Part shown: positions 21,476 through 42,336 of the stretch, piece by piece
How the letters are laid out: the number at the start of each line of letters is the position of its first letter
How positions within the stretch are numbered: position 1 is the first letter of the stretch
Origin: Patescibacteria group bacterium
GTDB lineage: Bacteria; Patescibacteriota; Minisyncoccia; UBA6257; 2-01-FULL-56-20
Assembly: GCA_038063755.1 (NCBI GenBank)
Contig: JBBTUL010000005.1
Location: 1,358 to 45,047, forward strand
Direction of reading: 5' to 3'
DNA length: 43,690 nucleotides
The notes under the pieces: generated by a model
Told to the model about the DNA's origin: nothing
Seen by the model: the letters and a program-made list of their open reading frames with translations, nothing else
Database searches by the model: none
Program-made: the position numbers and the translations under genes

Positions 21476-23299
21476 TCAACCACGGTACCGCAAGAATGTG
21501 CCGTCTTGCACATCGCACCACGCATACGAATCATTCACGTACCATAGAAGCCTCTTCATATCCTCAAAGCTTCCTTGCGCCCCAAGGACAACTGCGTAAA
21601 CTCTTCCGCTACAGGGCGCCTCTGTTACAACAACCAAATTTTGCCCAGCTCGCGGCGTCTCACCTGTTTTCCCGCCGAGAACACGGAGCGGTACATCCTC
21701 TCGGCCCAAAAGCTTGTTGGTACTCTGAAGCCTTGCGATATAGCTTCCGTTTACGGCGAAAAGACCAAAGTCTTTTTTCGAGGTGATCGCGAGAAGGTCT
21801 GAACGCGTCTCTTGGATGTGTCTCATGAGCTTGTACAGATCGAAAGCAGTCGATTGATTTATTTTATCGCTCCCGATCTCCGGGTCGGTTCCTGAAATAT
21901 TCACAAGGCTTGTTTTTAAAAGCCCCAGAGACTCCGCCTTCTTGTTCATGGCGGCCAGAAACTCGTTCGCTCCAGTCCGAAGCGCAATCGCATTTGCAAT
22001 CTCATTGTGCGATGCAACAAGGAGGGCGTGGAGTGCATTTTCGAAAGAAAGCATGTCGCCTGCGTGATAGATTCCGGAGACTCCTTTGTCGCGAAGTGCT
22101 TGTTCTGAAACAACGATCGTATCTTCGCTTCTGTTTTTTTCAGAAGATACGAGCGCTACCATAAGCTTTGTGATGCTCGCGATCGGGAGTGCCAGCTCTT
22201 TCTCTTTCTCTAGTAGAATCTTCTCGCTTCCTGCGCTGTCCACAAAAACCGCCACAAACGACCCTGCGGAAAGTTGAAGTCCTGGCGATCCCTCCCTAAA
22301 GGAAGGTGTCTCTACAAGATCGAATTTTGATTCATTGTATGCCAGCTTCTCCGCATAAAGCGCTTTTGCCATTTGAACTCCGACAAAACGCCAATGCCAT
22401 GGTTCGTATGAAAATCCAGTCGCTTCTTTTTTTCCGTTCGGAAAACTCATGGTGAAGCCGTATTGATGTGCGTTTTTACGCATCCACCTGCCTCCCTTGC
22501 TATGCGCAAATCGGTCGTCAACACCCGTAAATTTAATAGAAGAATCCGTAAGGTCGACCGTCGTTCCAAGCTGGTGCTCGGAAAGTCCAGGCTTTGCAAT
22601 TTCGTCTATCGCGCTCCCTCCTTCGATGCTCAGCCAAAAATCGTATAAGTGTTTTTGTATCTCCGGTGTCCGATACCCGGACGTAATCATAAGCTCAACG
22701 TCGTCCTTTTTTGCGTCAGAAAACATCCGCTCTATCTGGGGCGCTACATCGGAACGCAAACAGACGACTCCGGCCGTCCGAACCCTCCTTGAAACATCCT
22801 CGAGGGACGGAGGGGTATAGTCGAGGGGCACCGCGAAGGCACTCCCCACCTTCTTCATCATAAAATCTGGATAGACAACCTCCTCTCTTGGGCAAAGACG
22901 AGAAAGAAAGATTTCGTTTATCCTCTCTCGAGTCTCGTCGTCAACAATGCCGCTCTCGACGAGTCCGTATTCTTTCTGAAAGTTCTTGACCGCACCCACG
23001 GTTCTTTCTCCGTAATGTCCGGTTGTTGCTTGTTCAGGATAAATAGCCTTGTCTTCCGAGAGCATCCGCTGCAAGAGAAGGACGTCGCTTCCGCTCTCGC
23101 CGTACGAAAGATTGTTTTTGAGCGAGCCTCTCTGTTGCCACTCCCTAAGCAGTCCCGTCTCTATCTCGATAATCTGAGCGAGTCGATTTTCGCCCCCGTA
23201 GCCTGGCACCTTGCCAGACAAAAAAACAAAAAGGAGGACGGCGCAACCAAAACAAAAAGCGCCCAGAACGAATGATTTTTTATTGTCTAGTCCATTCAT
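21476..23299 (-). CDS. Fusion: peptidoglycan-binding domain + M15B (VanY-type) carboxypeptidase + S11 D-Ala-D-Ala carboxypeptidase
   Basis: DVLLLQRML...TGHYGERTVGAVKNFQ; SGYR, SEHQLGTTVD and EPWHWR; SITK, SHN and KTG. Confidence 0.88.
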   Translation of the reverse strand: MNGLDNKKSFVLGAFCFGCAVLLFVFLSGKVPGYGGENRLAQIIEIETGLLREWQQRGSLKNNLSYGESGSDVLLLQRMLSEDKAIYPEQATTGHYGERTVGAVKNFQKEYGLVESGIVDDETRERINEIFLSRLCPREEVVYPDFMMKKVGSAFAVPLDYTPPSLEDVSRRVRTAGVVCLRSDVAPQIERMFSDAKKDDVELMITSGYRTPEIQKHLYDFWLSIEGGSAIDEIAKPGLSEHQLGTTVDLTDSSIKFTGVDDRFAHSKGGRWMRKNAHQYGFTMSFPNGKKEATGFSYEPWHWRFVGVQMAKALYAEKLAYNESKFDLVETPSFREGSPGLQLSAGSFVAVFVDSAGSEKILLEKEKELALPIASITKLMVALVSSEKNRSEDTIVVSEQALRDKGVSGIYHAGDMLSFENALHALLVASHNEIANAIALRTGANEFLAAMNKKAESLGLLKTSLVNISGTDPEIGSDKINQSTAFDLYKLMRHIQETRSDLLAITSKKDFGLFAVNGSYIARLQSTNKLLGREDVPLRVLGGKTGETPRAGQNLVVVTEAPCSGRVYAVVLGAQGSFEDMKRLLWYVNDSYAWCDVQDGTFLRYRG

Positions 23300-23301
23300 G
23301 G

Positions 23302-24384
23302 TTATTTCGACGAAAACCAAACGTCATTCTTCCACCTCCAATCGGAACCCATACCTCCAAAGATATATATTCTCTCGTTAAAAACAAGTGTTGAGTGGTC
23401 TTCTCTCCCCATCCACGGCGGGTCGCTGTCGGTTTTTTGCCACACAGCCCCGTCCGATGAATACCAAATATCATTCACGTCTCCCAAGATGCCGTCGTTT
23501 AGTCTTCCGACAATCCAAAGCAGACCGTGAAACACAGCGAGCGAATGCCCCTGTCGAGTCTGCCAAGACGGAGAACTCGTAACGAGCTCCCAGACCAAGC
23601 CATCCGCCGAAGACCAAACATCCCCAAATGTGTCTCCGGACAAGTTCATGCCGCCAGCTAGAAATATTTTCCCGTTAAAAATTGCGGTCGCATGATCCCA
23701 CCGCGGAAACCACGGAATTGTCGCCGTTGCCTTGCTCCACAAAAGCCCGTCTTCGGAGTACCAAACATCGTTTTGTACTTTCCGCTCGTCGTAATTTACT
23801 CCGCCGAAAAACCACAGCTTCCCCTGGAACACCTCCGCAGACTGTCCCTCTCTCGCCGGCCAAGGAGCATCCACAACAACTTTTTTCCAAAAAGCTCCGT
23901 CGTCGGACTGCCATACGTCGCTCGTGTAACCCGTGATCGGACTCCATCCACCGAACATCCAAAGCTTGTCCTTAAACGGAATCACGGACATTGATCGCCG
24001 CACAGGCCACTCCGCATGTTCTTTTGCGATATTCCAACTTAAACCGTCCTCCGAATACCAAATGTCGTTGAAATGCGGAGCCTCCCAGTAGCGAACGACG
24101 TGATTTTCAAGGAGAACCTCGCCGCCGTCTAGCCCGCCCATAGTCCACATTTTATTTTTAAAAACCGCGCTTGCGGCAGAATCTCTCGGGCGCCACCTAA
24201 AAGAAGATGTCGCTTCCTCCCAAGATAAAAGATTTGGCTGAAAACCAGTAATTTGTTTTTCCGGTTCGTTCTCTACCTTCGGGGCCTCTGTCTCTTGGGG
24301 TGGCGAATATAAGAACAGGGAAAGCGCGACGATTGCGACAAGAAAGACGAACCAAAAGAATGATGAATACTTGAGATTTTTCAT
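23302..24384 (-). CDS. Membrane-anchored Kelch-like beta-propeller protein
   Basis: Repeated F.GK(L/I)W..GG...NDVWYS.DG..W units after an N-terminal TM. Confidence 0.85.
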   Translation of the reverse strand: MKNLKYSSFFWFVFLVAIVALSLFLYSPPQETEAPKVENEPEKQITGFQPNLLSWEEATSSFRWRPRDSAASAVFKNKMWTMGGLDGGEVLLENHVVRYWEAPHFNDIWYSEDGLSWNIAKEHAEWPVRRSMSVIPFKDKLWMFGGWSPITGYTSDVWQSDDGAFWKKVVVDAPWPAREGQSAEVFQGKLWFFGGVNYDERKVQNDVWYSEDGLLWSKATATIPWFPRWDHATAIFNGKIFLAGGMNLSGDTFGDVWSSADGLVWELVTSSPSWQTRQGHSLAVFHGLLWIVGRLNDGILGDVNDIWYSSDGAVWQKTDSDPPWMGREDHSTLVFNERIYIFGGMGSDWRWKNDVWFSSK

Positions 24385-39347: not shown

Positions 39348-41552
39348 TTATCGCCCTTGCGGCGGAAGAGAGACGCCAAGACGCTCAAGAAGTGCCGTCA
39401 GTCGATCAAGATAAGACGAGATGGCGTTTCGCTCTCCTGTGCTATACCGCTCGCGAAATGTAGCTGATCGCTGTGTTGTCGTTGCCGTAGTCCCACCAGT
39501 CGAACCAGTCGTCGCGGCGCGGAGCTTGTAGAGGTAAATGTATTGGGCGTACCTTAGTGGAGCGAATTCGGATGCCACGTCAGTAGCCAAGAAATCTTGG
39601 GTACCAACCATGATAGTGCCGTTCGGGGAAATGCCGACGCCCTGGATGAGTTGACTTTCCCCATACTGGTTCTTTGGGATCGGCTGGACATTCAATTTGT
39701 TGCCGTTTTTGGTGACCACCAATTCGCACACCCTGATGATCTGGCCGTAGTGCCAAAAGGTGGGTGTAAGATCGGAACCACCAGCGCATTTGGTATACGC
39801 AAAATATTCCCCGGCCAAAGACACGTTGGAGGTTGGTCCAGTCATACGGACATACATCGATTCAAGACCGGAGATCTCTTTTTCCAGCACGAGTCCGTTC
39901 GAGCCAGCTTTATAGATCCGGCCGCGATACGGCCCGCCCCGGGTCGGATCATCCGCGAAGATGACCACTATCCTTTTCGGGTCCAAGACATCCAACGAGT
40001 ACGCAGCCACTTGCCCAAACCCCTCTATCGTCTGGACCAGCTTCGGTTCTTCCCCGGCGAGCAGGGCCGTGGCCGAAGGCATTCGATAAACGAGTACTTT
40101 CCCGCGCGAAGCAGCACTAAAATACAAATCCTCGGTGGCCAGAAAGTACTCCCCGACCCCGACAATGGGGCGGTATTTGTTTTTGTATAGCGGCGGTGCG
40201 CCGCTGCACGCTCCGGCTGGGTCAAGACAGGGAAACGGCCCGTCGGTGCGAAACTCCGCTATCTCCCGAATCTTTGGAATAGCATAAACCTTGTTGGTAT
40301 CCCCTTTTTTGTCACGATCGAATGATAATTTATTGCTGACATACGTCTCTTTGCCTTCGTAGACAGTCTCGCCGTCGATTAGCACACCATTCGAGTAAGC
40401 CATGTTGGCCGCGCCGTAGATGTCTCCCTCTTCGTCCGGCCATCCGCCGCCTGGGTCGCCCTGTCTGGCAACAAACAAGCGATCTATCATGTCTATCCCC
40501 GTCTTGGATACTTTGTAGGTGATCCAAGGACGTTCGCGACTGATGACGAATCCGAGTTCCCGAACCAGGGCTCCGGATCCGATATCGACCATCTCCGGAT
40601 AAGCGTGGCATCCCGTATCGTGCTTGCATACGCGGGGTTTGCGTCCGGCAGTGGCATCTAGGCAGGCATCCCTTTTGGAAAGGTATTTGCCATCGTCGGT
40701 AAAAAGATACATACCTCCTCCGCCCCAGTTGCTGTTAACCATGGAACAATTCCCGGCGACCACGAAATATCTTCCGCCGTCCGTACCCTTCATGGAAACA
40801 ACTCCGTTGAACATGCTGTAGTTCTGGTGATGGCTCATCTGAACCTGCCTAGAGCCGAAAACGGGTTCGGGGCTGGTTAGCGACACATCGTATTGTCCGG
40901 TATCCGCCGCAGTGACTATAATCGTGGCGCTCTGCGTAATGCCCTTGTAAGTCGCCGTGACCACCGCACTGCCGCTATCAGCTATGGCCTTGAAAGTTCC
41001 GGGCGAGGTCATGCTCAAGACTTTTGGGTCTGAGATGGACCAGGTTGCCGCGGTAGCCACTCCATCAATCCTGGACTGACAGTCGCTCGTCGGACATACT
41101 TTCCCTTCTTGGTACCTTAGATCCGCGGCCACGGACTCACCTTTCTTGAGATTGCCCTTGGACAGATTCAAGATAAGCTGCTCATAAATAATCATTCCGG
41201 TGACGGTAACCGGCTTATCGACATGGTAGCCTTGGTACGAAACCGAGATGAGTGCGCCGCCCCATCGGTCGCCGACACCGAAAAGTCCGGGTCCCAGAAG
41301 GCGGACCCGTCGGGCCTCCTCGGACGTAAGTCCACCGCTGTTCCACTGTGCTTGCCCGGTGACATCCTGACCGTTGAAACGCGCGGTAAACTGCACAGTG
41401 TCGCTCGTACCTAAACGCAGAGTTCCGGATTCAGGCGTCACCACCAGCGGACTGCTCTGGGCCTCGGCCAGCCGATCGACAAAAGGAACGACAACGACCG
41501 AGGCCAGCATGGTTGCTATTAGCAAAAGGGTTGTCCTACGAGATCTACTCAT
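39348..41552 (-). CDS. Large secreted/surface protein, paralog of 37038-39218
   Basis: Start reassigned to ATG 41552 (TATGAT 7 nt upstream, signal peptide follows); the longer track ORF runs into tRNA-like sequence. Confidence 0.8.
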   Translation of the reverse strand: MSRSRRTTLLLIATMLASVVVVPFVDRLAEAQSSPLVVTPESGTLRLGTSDTVQFTARFNGQDVTGQAQWNSGGLTSEEARRVRLLGPGLFGVGDRWGGALISVSYQGYHVDKPVTVTGMIIYEQLILNLSKGNLKKGESVAADLRYQEGKVCPTSDCQSRIDGVATAATWSISDPKVLSMTSPGTFKAIADSGSAVVTATYKGITQSATIIVTAADTGQYDVSLTSPEPVFGSRQVQMSHHQNYSMFNGVVSMKGTDGGRYFVVAGNCSMVNSNWGGGGMYLFTDDGKYLSKRDACLDATAGRKPRVCKHDTGCHAYPEMVDIGSGALVRELGFVISRERPWITYKVSKTGIDMIDRLFVARQGDPGGGWPDEEGDIYGAANMAYSNGVLIDGETVYEGKETYVSNKLSFDRDKKGDTNKVYAIPKIREIAEFRTDGPFPCLDPAGACSGAPPLYKNKYRPIVGVGEYFLATEDLYFSAASRGKVLVYRMPSATALLAGEEPKLVQTIEGFGQVAAYSLDVLDPKRIVVIFADDPTRGGPYRGRIYKAGSNGLVLEKEISGLESMYVRMTGPTSNVSLAGEYFAYTKCAGGSDLTPTFWHYGQIIRVCELVVTKNGNKLNVQPIPKNQYGESQLIQGVGISPNGTIMVGTQDFLATDVASEFAPLRYAQYIYLYKLRAATTGSTGGTTATTTQRSATFRERYSTGERNAISSYLDRLTALLERLGVSLPPQGR

Positions 41553-41654
41553 TGTACAAATCATACCATGAGGCATGGCCCGCATATCAGACACAAAGAT
41601 TCTTTTCCCTTTCCTTTTATTAACATAAGCAAACAAAGACACGCGCAACAAATG

Positions 41655-41880
41655 TACCCCCGGCAGGAATCGAACCCGCATCAAGGCCCTAGAAGAGCCC
41701 TGCGTCATTTACCCCGCCCGAAATGCCCTCCTTGTTTTGCGTCCCCGCGAGGAATCGGACCTCGATCTGCTCCTTAGAAGGGAGCCGTTCTATCCGTTGA
41801 ACTACGGGGACATTTAGTGCGGGGTCTATTGATCCCGAACCATAGCCTTGCAAATGGTCCAGGGACGTGGCTACGGGGGC
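41655..41880 (-). other. Outer split tRNA-Arg(TCT)-like gene enclosing the inner tRNA
   Basis: 5' piece GCCCCCG-TA-GC (41870-41880) pairs with the acceptor strand of the 3' piece GC-A-GGGCT-CTTCTAG-GGCCT-TGAT-GCGGG-TTCGATT-CCTGC-CGGGGGT-A (41655-41703). Confidence 0.7.
41740..41811 (-). tRNA. tRNA-Arg(TCT), atypical T-loop TCCGATT
   Basis: GTCCCCG/CGGGGAC acceptor stem, GTTC/GAAC D-stem and GCTCC-CTTCTAA-GGAGC anticodon arm. Confidence 0.9.
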
Positions 41881-41936
41881 ATCCACTCTTCGGCTTTGAT
41901 TCTATGTGAAATTTAAGATACTTTAAAGGGTGTCAA

Positions 41937-42007
41937 CGGGCTGTCGTATACCGGTAGTACGCGTGCTTTGGGAGCACGTAGACTGGGTTCAATTCCCAGC
42001 AGCCCGA
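41937..42007 (+). tRNA. tRNA-Pro(TGG)
   Basis: CGGGCTG/CAGCCCG acceptor stem, CGTGC-TTTGGGA-GCACG anticodon arm, TTCAATT T-loop. Confidence 0.95.
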
Positions 42008-42132
42008 CATTAGAAGTTGGCTTGTCGAGCAAAGCGAGATTAGCAACTCTTATGTCCCGACTCCGGTCGGGACCAGAGAAAATCTTCGAGCGCAGCGAGT
42101 TAGAGCTTCTTATGCCCCGACAGACGTCGGGG
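42008..42132 (+). repeat. tRNA-trailer two-hairpin element (copies 2 and 3, tandem)
   Basis: Two ~60-bp units of AGAA...TCGAGC..AGCGAG.TAG...TCTTATGYCCCGAC....GTCGGG. Confidence 0.72.
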
Positions 42133-42336
42133 CTTGTCAGGAGTTATCCATAACCACCGCAGCTCAGAAAGCGCAGGCGGGACAGACCAATCCCCCGCCG
42201 AAGGCGGGGCAGCCAAACATCGTCATCCCAACCCGCAGAGTGTAGGCGCTCACTTTTCTAAAAATAATCTAGCAGGCCAGTATCTTTTGCCTTTGCTATT
42301 TTGGGCAAGCTTTTATATTGTGCTTATAAGACAAAC

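Follow-up and report, generated by a model that had tools for sequence, protein, structure and literature searches.

How can a complete tRNA gene come to lie inside another tRNA gene with the same anticodon, and what becomes of the gene that surrounds it? The question is raised by a locus at 41655-41880 of a 43,690-nt stretch of DNA, here called the window, from a very small groundwater bacterium of the Patescibacteria group (assembly GCA_038063755.1, contig JBBTUL010000005.1, positions 1,358 to 45,047). On the minus strand of this locus, a complete tRNA-Arg(UCU) gene occupies the D-loop position of a second tRNA-Arg(UCU)-like gene. The best reading is that the locus is an in-place tRNA gene replacement caught before its debris was cleared, and not a new kind of spliced tRNA. 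Specifically, we consider it probable that a small insert has split the resident tRNA-Arg(UCU), leaving the outer gene dead, and has brought a functional successor, which is transcribed from the old promoter and processed in the ordinary way.

Anatomy of the nested locus

On the minus strand, the locus opens with a promoter-like site (TTTAAA-17 nt-TAGAAT, 41927-41899), about 19 nt 5′ of a first tRNA fragment. This outer 5′ piece (GCCCCCGTAGC, 41880-41870) consists of the acceptor 5′ strand, U8, A9 and the first two D-stem bases, equal to positions 1-11 of a resident tRNA-Arg(UCU) of the sequence type that we call type B below. The outer 3′ piece, of 49 nt (41703-41655), corresponds to positions 24-73 and holds the last two D-stem bases, the anticodon arm (UCU), a T-arm with TTCGATT, the acceptor 3′ strand and a discriminator A, so that it ends CGGGGGT+A. 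It scores 21.1 bits against the Rfam tRNA model, which is under the 29-bit threshold, and is recovered over model positions 24-73 (E = 4e-13) by nhmmer with a hidden Markov model built from the tRNA-Arg(TCT) genes of 26 relatives.

Between the two pieces lies an insert of 166 nt (41869-41704), made of a 58-nt leader, a complete inner tRNA and a 36-nt trailer. The leader (41869-41812) contains CACGTCCC, a hairpin (41865-41833) and the block AATAGACCCCGCACTAAAT; the locus has two GCCCNCGTAGC repeats, with a stretch of the leader between them. The inner tRNA-Arg(UCU), of type A (41811-41740), is called by both ARAGORN and Rfam (64.4 bits), and its gene does not encode the CCA end. The trailer (41739-41704) contains GGAGGGCATTT (41731-41721) and GCGGGGT (41717-41711). 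The insert flanks are unique within the 868-kb genome. The ends of the insert (CACGTC... and ...AATGAC) do not form an inverted repeat; the one that is present lies further in and adjoins the inner tRNA.

Much of this layout had been proposed in a sequence-only reading of the window, and it is borne out: the outer 5′ start at 41880-41870, whose acceptor strand pairs 7/7 with 41662-41656; the complete inner tRNA at 41740-41811, found by ARAGORN and Rfam on the locus as it stands; the outer 3′ piece at 41703-41655 with its TCT anticodon arm and T-arm; the TAGAAT -10 box at ~41899-41904, which is part of the promoter-like site; and the interruption of ~165 nt, in fact 166 nt, in the D-loop position. 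The inner tRNA is also distinct in sequence from the outer gene, as had been stated, the outer 3′ piece and the inner 3′ part being identical at 32/49 positions.

The nested layout is no assembly artefact, since independent contigs support every junction. Logan contigs of sequencing run X1, which may be the source sample, match 41300-41805 and 41776-41972 with no differences, and a 6138-nt Logan contig of run X2 spans 41300-41788. Misassembly, a doubt that the sequence-only reading had itself raised, is thus not seen where the X1 and X2 contigs cross the junctions. Furthermore, a separate metagenome contig of 1245 nt (L079), from the same species as the window, has the same layout and is 99.76% identical; its three mismatches (at 40856, 40869 and 42024) all lie beyond 41655-41880. 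Runs X2, X4 and X6 are without coverage of 41827-41919, which is not evidence either way.

Two further features of the window touch the outer pieces. An exact GCCCCCGTAGC is expected 0.03 times per window and is found twice; the second copy (23192-23202, plus strand), within a 614-aa open reading frame (ORF; 21476-23320, minus strand) and without surrounding tRNA features, is probably a chance match. A long ORF (39348-41708) overlaps the outer 3′ piece, and we take this overlap as chance read-through 5′ of a later start.

The outer gene is the relic of a resident gene

In relatives, a single uninterrupted tRNA-Arg(TCT) gene directly follows the same promoter and diverges from tRNA-Pro(TGG). 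In the window, the divergent neighbour is tRNA-Pro(UGG) (41937-42008, plus strand), which serves as the synteny anchor of the locus among relatives, tRNA-Pro(TGG) adjoining tRNA-Arg(TCT) in 19 of the 21 tRNA-Arg(TCT) loci listed. The relatives' promoter motifs (TAGAATCAA / TATTATCAA) lie directly before their tRNA, and the 65 nt 5′ of the outer 5′ piece match the relatives' upstream regions with z up to 13.

Most tRNA-Arg(TCT) genes of the relatives fall into three sequence types by their anticodon stem. The inner gene resembles type A (GCTCC/GGAGC-like), and the outer pieces resemble type B (GGGCT/GGCCT-like). The outer 5′ piece is identical to the first 11 nt of the genes at three loci (L022, L024, L028), and the outer 3′ piece is identical at 43/49 positions to the gene of genome G075; position 38 of this piece is G, where 20 of the 21 tRNA-Arg(TCT) genes compared have A. 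Together, the pieces cover positions 1-11 and 24-73 of the relatives' gene, and the D-loop (positions 12-23; TCAATGGATAGA in type B) is absent and replaced by the insert. Because the outer gene occupies the same place, after the promoter and divergent from tRNA-Pro, and retains these positions only, it is the old resident gene, broken and now a relic. As in an insertionally disrupted tRNA pseudogene, its pieces are collinear with intact orthologues and stand in the orthologous place.

The leader is not a former promoter: compared with 26 upstream regions its z is at most 2.6, where true promoters attain 13-14. A third, middle tRNA relic (GACCCCGCAC ... GCGGGGTA) was rejected as a resemblance by eye only, which nhmmer does not detect at E up to 100.

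Two relatives show other features between promoter and gene or close to it. At L022 (genome G022), a near-perfect GC-rich hairpin of ~19 bp lies between the promoter and tRNA-Arg(TCT). At L021 (genome G027), GTCCCCGTGG, a tRNA-like 5′ start outside the called tRNAs and perhaps an older relic, occurs on the strand of tRNA-Arg(TCT), ~106 nt 5′ of it. Such a same-strand tRNA-like 5′ start motif is present in 3 of the 28 distinct tRNA-Arg(TCT) loci (the window, G076 and L021); on the other strand, none of the loci has it.

The inner gene is the only complete tRNA-Arg(UCU) gene

The genome of the window (868 kb, 17 contigs, 98% complete) contains no complete tRNA-Arg(UCU) gene besides the inner one (ARAGORN, 43 genes; Infernal, 49 matches). 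The tRNAs that ARAGORN seemingly misses (Asp, Lys-UUU, Pro-CGG and the initiator) are either cut by contig ends or found by Infernal. AGA makes up 1144 of the 7699 Arg codons in 245 long open frames; because there is no other complete tRNA-Arg(UCU) gene, the inner one has to be expressed. In sequence, it shares 91-93% identity with the type-A genes of two near relatives, G074 and G004.

Across 41400-42150, TTTAAA-17-TAGAAT is the only promoter-like site on the minus strand, and none lies within the insert; the simplest explanation is therefore transcription from the old promoter. As for processing, the genome encodes RNase III (244.8 bits) and a CCA-adding enzyme domain (132.7 bits) and has an RNase P RNA match (G000:C6:14355-14853, E = 1e-23, 75.6 bits, under the curated cut-off of 100), whereas an RNase Z equivalog was not found in the genome, the best match reaching 24.7 bits. 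The RNase P RNA match covers the full 367-position model over ~500 nt, and this RNA may be insertion-bearing or divergent.

From these elements we infer the following route. The resident D-loop (positions 12-23) would have been lost to the 166-nt insert, which would have brought the distinct tRNA-Arg(UCU) with its leader and trailer, and the two outer pieces would remain as relics that yield no tRNA. The old promoter would transcribe the whole unit as one precursor of ~240 nt, in which leader and trailer, and likewise both outer acceptor strands, would base-pair around the inner tRNA. RNase P would then cleave at the inner 5′ end, RNase III and/or exonucleases would remove the trailer, and the CCA-adding enzyme would complete the 3′ end.

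The tRNA complement of this genome has other particular members. A tRNA-Ile with anticodon TAT and an initiator-like tRNA(CAT) are encoded at G000:C5:60365-60437 and G000:C15:3975-4045; the initiator-like gene has an odd D-arm, scores 31.8 bits with Infernal and is missed by ARAGORN. At the tRNA-Lys(UUU) gene at a contig end (G000:C11:137980-138208), the last ~30 nt are copied again ~118 nt downstream (29/30 identical). This second copy, a T arm and acceptor 3′ strand, is reported as 'tRNA-???' by ARAGORN and scores 20.6 bits with Rfam; the locus, outside the window, is a second tRNA relic locus of the genome, of the direct-repeat (att-like) type.

The same junction occurs in a second genus

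The sequence-only reading had pointed to relatives as the place to look for the nested layout, and we found it in a second genus. Genome G076 belongs to the same family and to another, non-sister genus. In G076, the promoter of its own lineage is followed by GCCCCCGTAGCCACATCCC, which is 19/20 identical to the window, and CACGTCCC of the window's left flank is conserved. The G076 leader is 56 nt long, and its block GAATGGACTCCGCA-TAGAT is 16/20 identical to the AATAGACCCCGCACTAAAT block. The insert of G076 likewise holds a complete tRNA-Arg(UCU), with a trailer collinear with that of the window: the two share GGAGGG (offset 8-13), GGGGTA (24-29) and ATTCCTnCCGGG (69-81). Aligned without gaps, the trailers are identical at 36/88 positions, compared with 24.7 +/- 4.0 in shuffles, 28 of 5000 of which reach 36. 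A role for GGAGGG as a ribosome-binding site was rejected, the spacing to the nearest ATG being wrong in both the window and G076.

The outer 3′ piece of G076 is broken by a 24-nt GC hairpin in place of the anticodon and T arms. It gives no Rfam match at E up to 10, and nhmmer recovers its last 15 nt only (E = 0.031). G076 thus shows the relic decaying, as is expected of a relic. The hairpin itself (TGCCCGCCGGGTTGGCAGGCGGGG, GC-rich, L038:1685-1708) recurs in identical form at an unrelated place of G075 (G075:C1:181527-181550, that is L088:228-251) and may represent a small palindromic repeat family in the genus of G075 and G076.

Next to the locus, no flanking genes common to the window, G076 and G075 were found. 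G075, a congener of G076 (RpoB segment 93.7% identical), has an uninterrupted gene after the same promoter, as do G003 and G124.

The insert is not simply inherited

We examined the relationship of the two host lineages with a single-gene RpoB-segment tree (FastTree, midpoint rooting), for which 48 of 50 segments were usable; the other two, G080 and G022, were translated in the wrong frame and account for a long branch that is spurious. The nearest partner of the window's genome is G106 (support 0.94), and both belong to a clade with G074, G125 and G003 (support 0.98). G075 and G076 are paired (support 1.0), close to G023 and G010. No sister relationship joins the window's genome to G076, and their common node spans 17 sampled genomes. 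Thus the insert is not simply inherited. The same junction with homologous flanks in two non-sister lineages therefore points to a site-specific mobile unit or to lateral spread of the nested allele, and we infer that the unit or the whole nested allele has spread laterally between lineages.

The A and B tRNA types are scattered over the tree in a random-looking way. Across 13 tips (the genomes for which the tRNA type had been read, all others being pruned) there are 5 changes, a count also attained in 821 of 2000 label shuffles. The tRNA-Arg(UCU) gene thus seems to be turned over often within the family, perhaps by way of the nested form as an intermediate.

Wider searches added no further genus. 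A BLAST search of 125 family genomes with the 77-nt 5′ flank gave only G076 in the right context, all other matches having E >= 0.07, and the left flank has no relative among the 124 other family genomes except G076. In 401 genomes of the order, the pattern CCCCCGTAGCCAC (<=1 mismatch) gave no further case among the matches listed and inspected; among the 30 matches listed, 13 lie in tRNA-Tyr genes (12 on the opposite strand) and 1 in tRNA-Cys, and two others that we examined (in G048 and G075) are coding sequence. Searching one genome for each of 185,579 species with the nested pattern returned one record, that of G076 itself, and metagenome contigs returned two, L079 and L078. L078 was rejected as a nested case; it is a tRNA-Arg(CCT) with a chance-like upstream match. 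Three patterns searched in viral contigs gave 0, 6 and 0 matches, the 6 being coding sequence without a tRNA. No other 3′-only relic was found in the 125 family genomes when searched with the type-B tRNA, the partial matches falling at contig ends or in other Arg isoacceptors.

In most of the family genomes listed (G000:C1:50953-53451 and 118 others), the rpoB-model match lies within an open frame of ~2250-2300 aa, some frames being shorter, for example at contig ends. This suggests a fused rpoB-rpoC gene in the family.

Predicted folding of the precursor

The 236-nt stretch that spans the unit (41885-41650) folds at a predicted -100.2 kcal/mol (z = -3.15), and 0 of 200 shuffles are as good, in line with the earlier impression that the insert is ordered. 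The outer acceptor stem has a predicted pair probability of 0.94-1.0. The inner acceptor stem has a predicted pair probability of 0.04, being outcompeted by leader-trailer pairing, and forcing it costs 3.7 kcal/mol. In this pairing, GGAGGGCATTT can find partners in the leader and in the 5′ strand of the inner acceptor, and GCGGGGT pairs with ACCCCGC (41825-41819). The sequence-only reading had described a flanking stem of ~24 bp that competes with the inner acceptor; the competition stands, as the stem does invade the inner acceptor strand in the predicted fold, but the length does not, the stem consisting of 7 + ~12 pairs. The competition is predicted in the precursor of the window and not in that of G076. 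In G076 a long interrupted stem is again predicted around the tRNA (z = -2.77), with partners unlike those of the window and with the inner cloverleaf not invaded.

At -22.4 kcal/mol, the leader-trailer duplex of the inner tRNA-Arg is the strongest among the 43 tRNAs of the genome. Others follow closely (tRNA-Ser(CGA), -22.3; tRNA-Ile(UAU), -19.6; Leu-UAG, -17.8 kcal/mol), with a median of -10.4 kcal/mol over the 43. Because such duplexes flank several other tRNAs of the genome, the stem that brackets the inner tRNA is an exaggerated local habit and not a unique device. The acceptor-extending duplexes, together with the presence of RNase III and with no RNase Z equivalog found in the genome, hint at duplex-dependent pre-tRNA processing in this genome.

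Alternative explanations

Several observations weigh against a replacement gene lodged in a dead one. The outer 3′ piece is nearly undamaged: A38G is its sole departure from the bases shared by all type-B genes, and the outer acceptor is perfectly paired; therefore, either the event is recent or parts of the relic are under selection. The inner tRNAs of the window and G076 are only 51/72 identical although their flanks share blocks, and the inner tRNA of G076 is 66/72 identical to the native gene of its congener G075, so that a single simple insertion is no sufficient explanation. Unrelated sequence separates the shared blocks, as one would expect from constraint more than from a neutral unit transferred recently. 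In the predicted fold of the full-length precursor, the inner acceptor stem does not form correctly. Finally, no hallmark of a known insertion mechanism was found when we looked for an intron ribozyme, an att-type repeat and transposon features.

In one alternative, the relic would have been co-opted as a scaffold, the outer acceptor/T-arm helix and the leader-trailer duplex now serving the inner tRNA; they could clamp the cuts by RNase III, RNase P or at the 3′ end, or could protect the precursor. This would extend the replacement reading, and we regard it as a possible but rather unlikely addition to it. It is consistent with the high predicted pairing of the outer acceptor stem and with the 5′ piece of G076, which is intact and perfectly paired with a nearer CGGGGGT in the trailer. 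The conserved blocks (the 5′ piece with CACRTCCC, GGAGGG and GGGGTA) all lie in predicted leader-trailer pairs, and the enzyme set of the genome and the leader-trailer duplexes on its other tRNAs fit as well. However, the partner of the 5′ piece differs, being the far 3′ end in the window and trailer offset 22-28 in G076, and the trailer site with which the block ACCCCGC / ACUCCGC pairs is not the same in both genomes. Two distinct sequences are too few for covariation, and 123 of the 125 family genomes manage without the structure.

Alternatively, the unit could be a mobile entity in its own right. The identical 5′ junction in two non-sister genera and the scatter of A and B types over the family tree have led us to consider that the 166-nt unit might be a non-autonomous replacement cassette, site-specific after nucleotide 11 of the isoacceptor gene and spreading laterally among Patescibacteria; we consider this doubtful. 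Just as tentative is the corollary that such a cassette would both kill and substitute the resident gene, leaving a host unable to lose it, and would thus be a selfish tRNA gene, addictive by replacement. The sequence-only reading had offered an inverted-repeat mini-element carrying a replacement tRNA, and half of this proposal survives: the promoter, the collinear pieces and the G076 homologue agree with a unit inserted into an ancestral gene, but the inverted-repeat mini-element is not supported, with the repeat internal, no target-site duplication and unique flanks. A transposon or miniature inverted-repeat transposable element was likewise rejected, the insert having no terminal inverted repeats and no target-site duplication, with 12 nt of the target deleted and with flanks unique in the genome.

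An integrative element (phage or island) could have entered tRNA-Arg(UCU) with partial duplication of the gene and later been almost entirely deleted, leaving a scar, which we judge to be unlikely. Integrating elements are a common source of prokaryotic partial tRNA genes, according to one study (10.1101/2022.07.05.498093). In the window, ~6 kb separate the locus from tRNA-Phe, which is adjacent in some relatives, and this interval contains two large ORFs without a clear family assignment; the direct-repeat relic of tRNA-Lys stands elsewhere in the genome. Yet the 3′ part left by integration would be a near-identical direct repeat, unlike the 32/49 identity seen here, and integration gives no separate 5′ fragment. 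No extra copy of either 3′ end occurs within the window at <=3 mismatches. The Pfam scan of the three nearest large ORFs gave no integrase or recombinase domain, one weak DUF3869 match being the only result. Furthermore, the near-equal insert size in the two genomes (leader 58/56 nt, trailer 36/36 nt) is unlike random deletion.

Still less likely, and in our view very unlikely, is a functional nested precursor from which both tRNAs mature, with the insert of 150-166 nt acting as a novel type of intron that the outer tRNA loses. Its attraction lies in the intact outer acceptor, anticodon and T arms. Moreover, among 800 in silico deletion constructs, ARAGORN accepts tRNA-Arg(TCT), or sometimes another tRNA, in 367. 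But exact removal of the insert leaves the outer tRNA without a D-loop. Among the 60 constructs listed, those called as tRNA-Arg(TCT) have 3′ exons that start at 41712-41724 and a D-arm GCGG-GGUAAAUG-ACGC, and in this substitute D-loop position 14 is G and the internal GG at the G18-G19 position is missing, whereas 21/21 relatives carry A-GYTYAAYGGAYAGARC. The splicing machinery was not found either: the endonuclease EndA (PF01974) and the ligase RtcB (PF01139) have 0 matches each in the genome, with controls positive in 4/14 and 10/14. No intron family, and no tmRNA-like or other known RNA family for the unit, is among the Rfam matches, whether across the whole window with the gathering threshold or within 41400-42200 with E allowed to reach 10. 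A group I or II ribozyme would not fit into 166 nt, and an intron of either group was rejected, as no ribozyme model matches and the exons lack positions 12-23. With the outer 3′ piece destroyed in G076, and with a second tRNA-Arg(UCU) redundant, the earlier proposal of a new sort of precursor, here taken as one that yields two tRNAs by splicing or refolding, is not supported.

An assembly chimera of two strains with different tRNA-Arg(UCU) alleles, finally, can be dismissed: intact type-B genes of other organisms occur in the same samples and loose ends at 41703 continue into a normal D-arm, but the junctions are crossed by X1 and X2 contigs with no differences, the separate contig L079 shares the layout, G076 is an independent metagenome-assembled genome of another genus with the same layout, and joining two alleles cannot create 94 nt of unique flank.

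Significance and comparison with known systems

Taken together, these results favour a resident tRNA-Arg(UCU) gene replaced in place. tRNA genes are classic landing sites of mobile DNA, with a restored gene and a 3′ fragment as the known outcome; here, the incoming DNA is a whole tRNA gene with the same anticodon, lodged in the D-loop of the old gene, at a junction that recurs in a second genus. If the locus is a frozen intermediate of replacement, then isoacceptors can be swapped in place in streamlined genomes without loss of decoding, which would also explain why the tRNA-Arg(UCU) types do not follow the species tree in the family. If site-specific insertion were true, the unit would represent a new and minimal kind of mobile element. 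In practice, annotation pipelines report the inner gene only, and such relics would be missed or miscalled. Full-text searches of the literature brought up no title or abstract with a bacterial tRNA gene nested in another tRNA gene, which is no proof of absence in print.

Archaeal non-canonical tRNA introns and split tRNAs are alike in having the interruption outside the anticodon loop and in using leader-like pairing to unite the halves, and the introns are described as mobile between tRNA genes (PMC10714607, citing Fujishima et al. 2009, 2010). Here the host is a bacterium in which splicing endonuclease and RtcB were not found, the halves cannot give a canonical tRNA, and a complete tRNA with the same anticodon lies in the intervening sequence.

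Group I introns in bacterial tRNA genes also interrupt the gene while acceptor pairing is kept across the interruption. Their usual position is the anticodon loop, whereas the insert here lies in the D-loop; it matches no ribozyme model, it is short of the length of such introns, and 12 nt of the host gene are missing.

The RNase III stems of rRNA operons are similar in that a long leader-trailer duplex encloses a structured RNA, which is freed by RNase III and RNase P. The duplex here is predicted from sequence, is formed in part by two halves of a dead tRNA and is present in 2 of the 125 family genomes.

In the att mechanism, integration of an element duplicates the 3′ part of a tRNA gene. 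The partial tRNA genes left by integrating elements (10.1101/2022.07.05.498093) are similar in that incoming DNA hits a tRNA gene and keeps it functional by supplying tRNA sequence, and a dead fragment is left beside a working gene. In contrast, the unit here is only 166 nt and has no integrase, the old gene has left a 5′ as well as a 3′ fragment, the working gene is not directly repeated in the fragment, and what the incoming DNA supplied is not a matching 3′ part but a whole, different tRNA.

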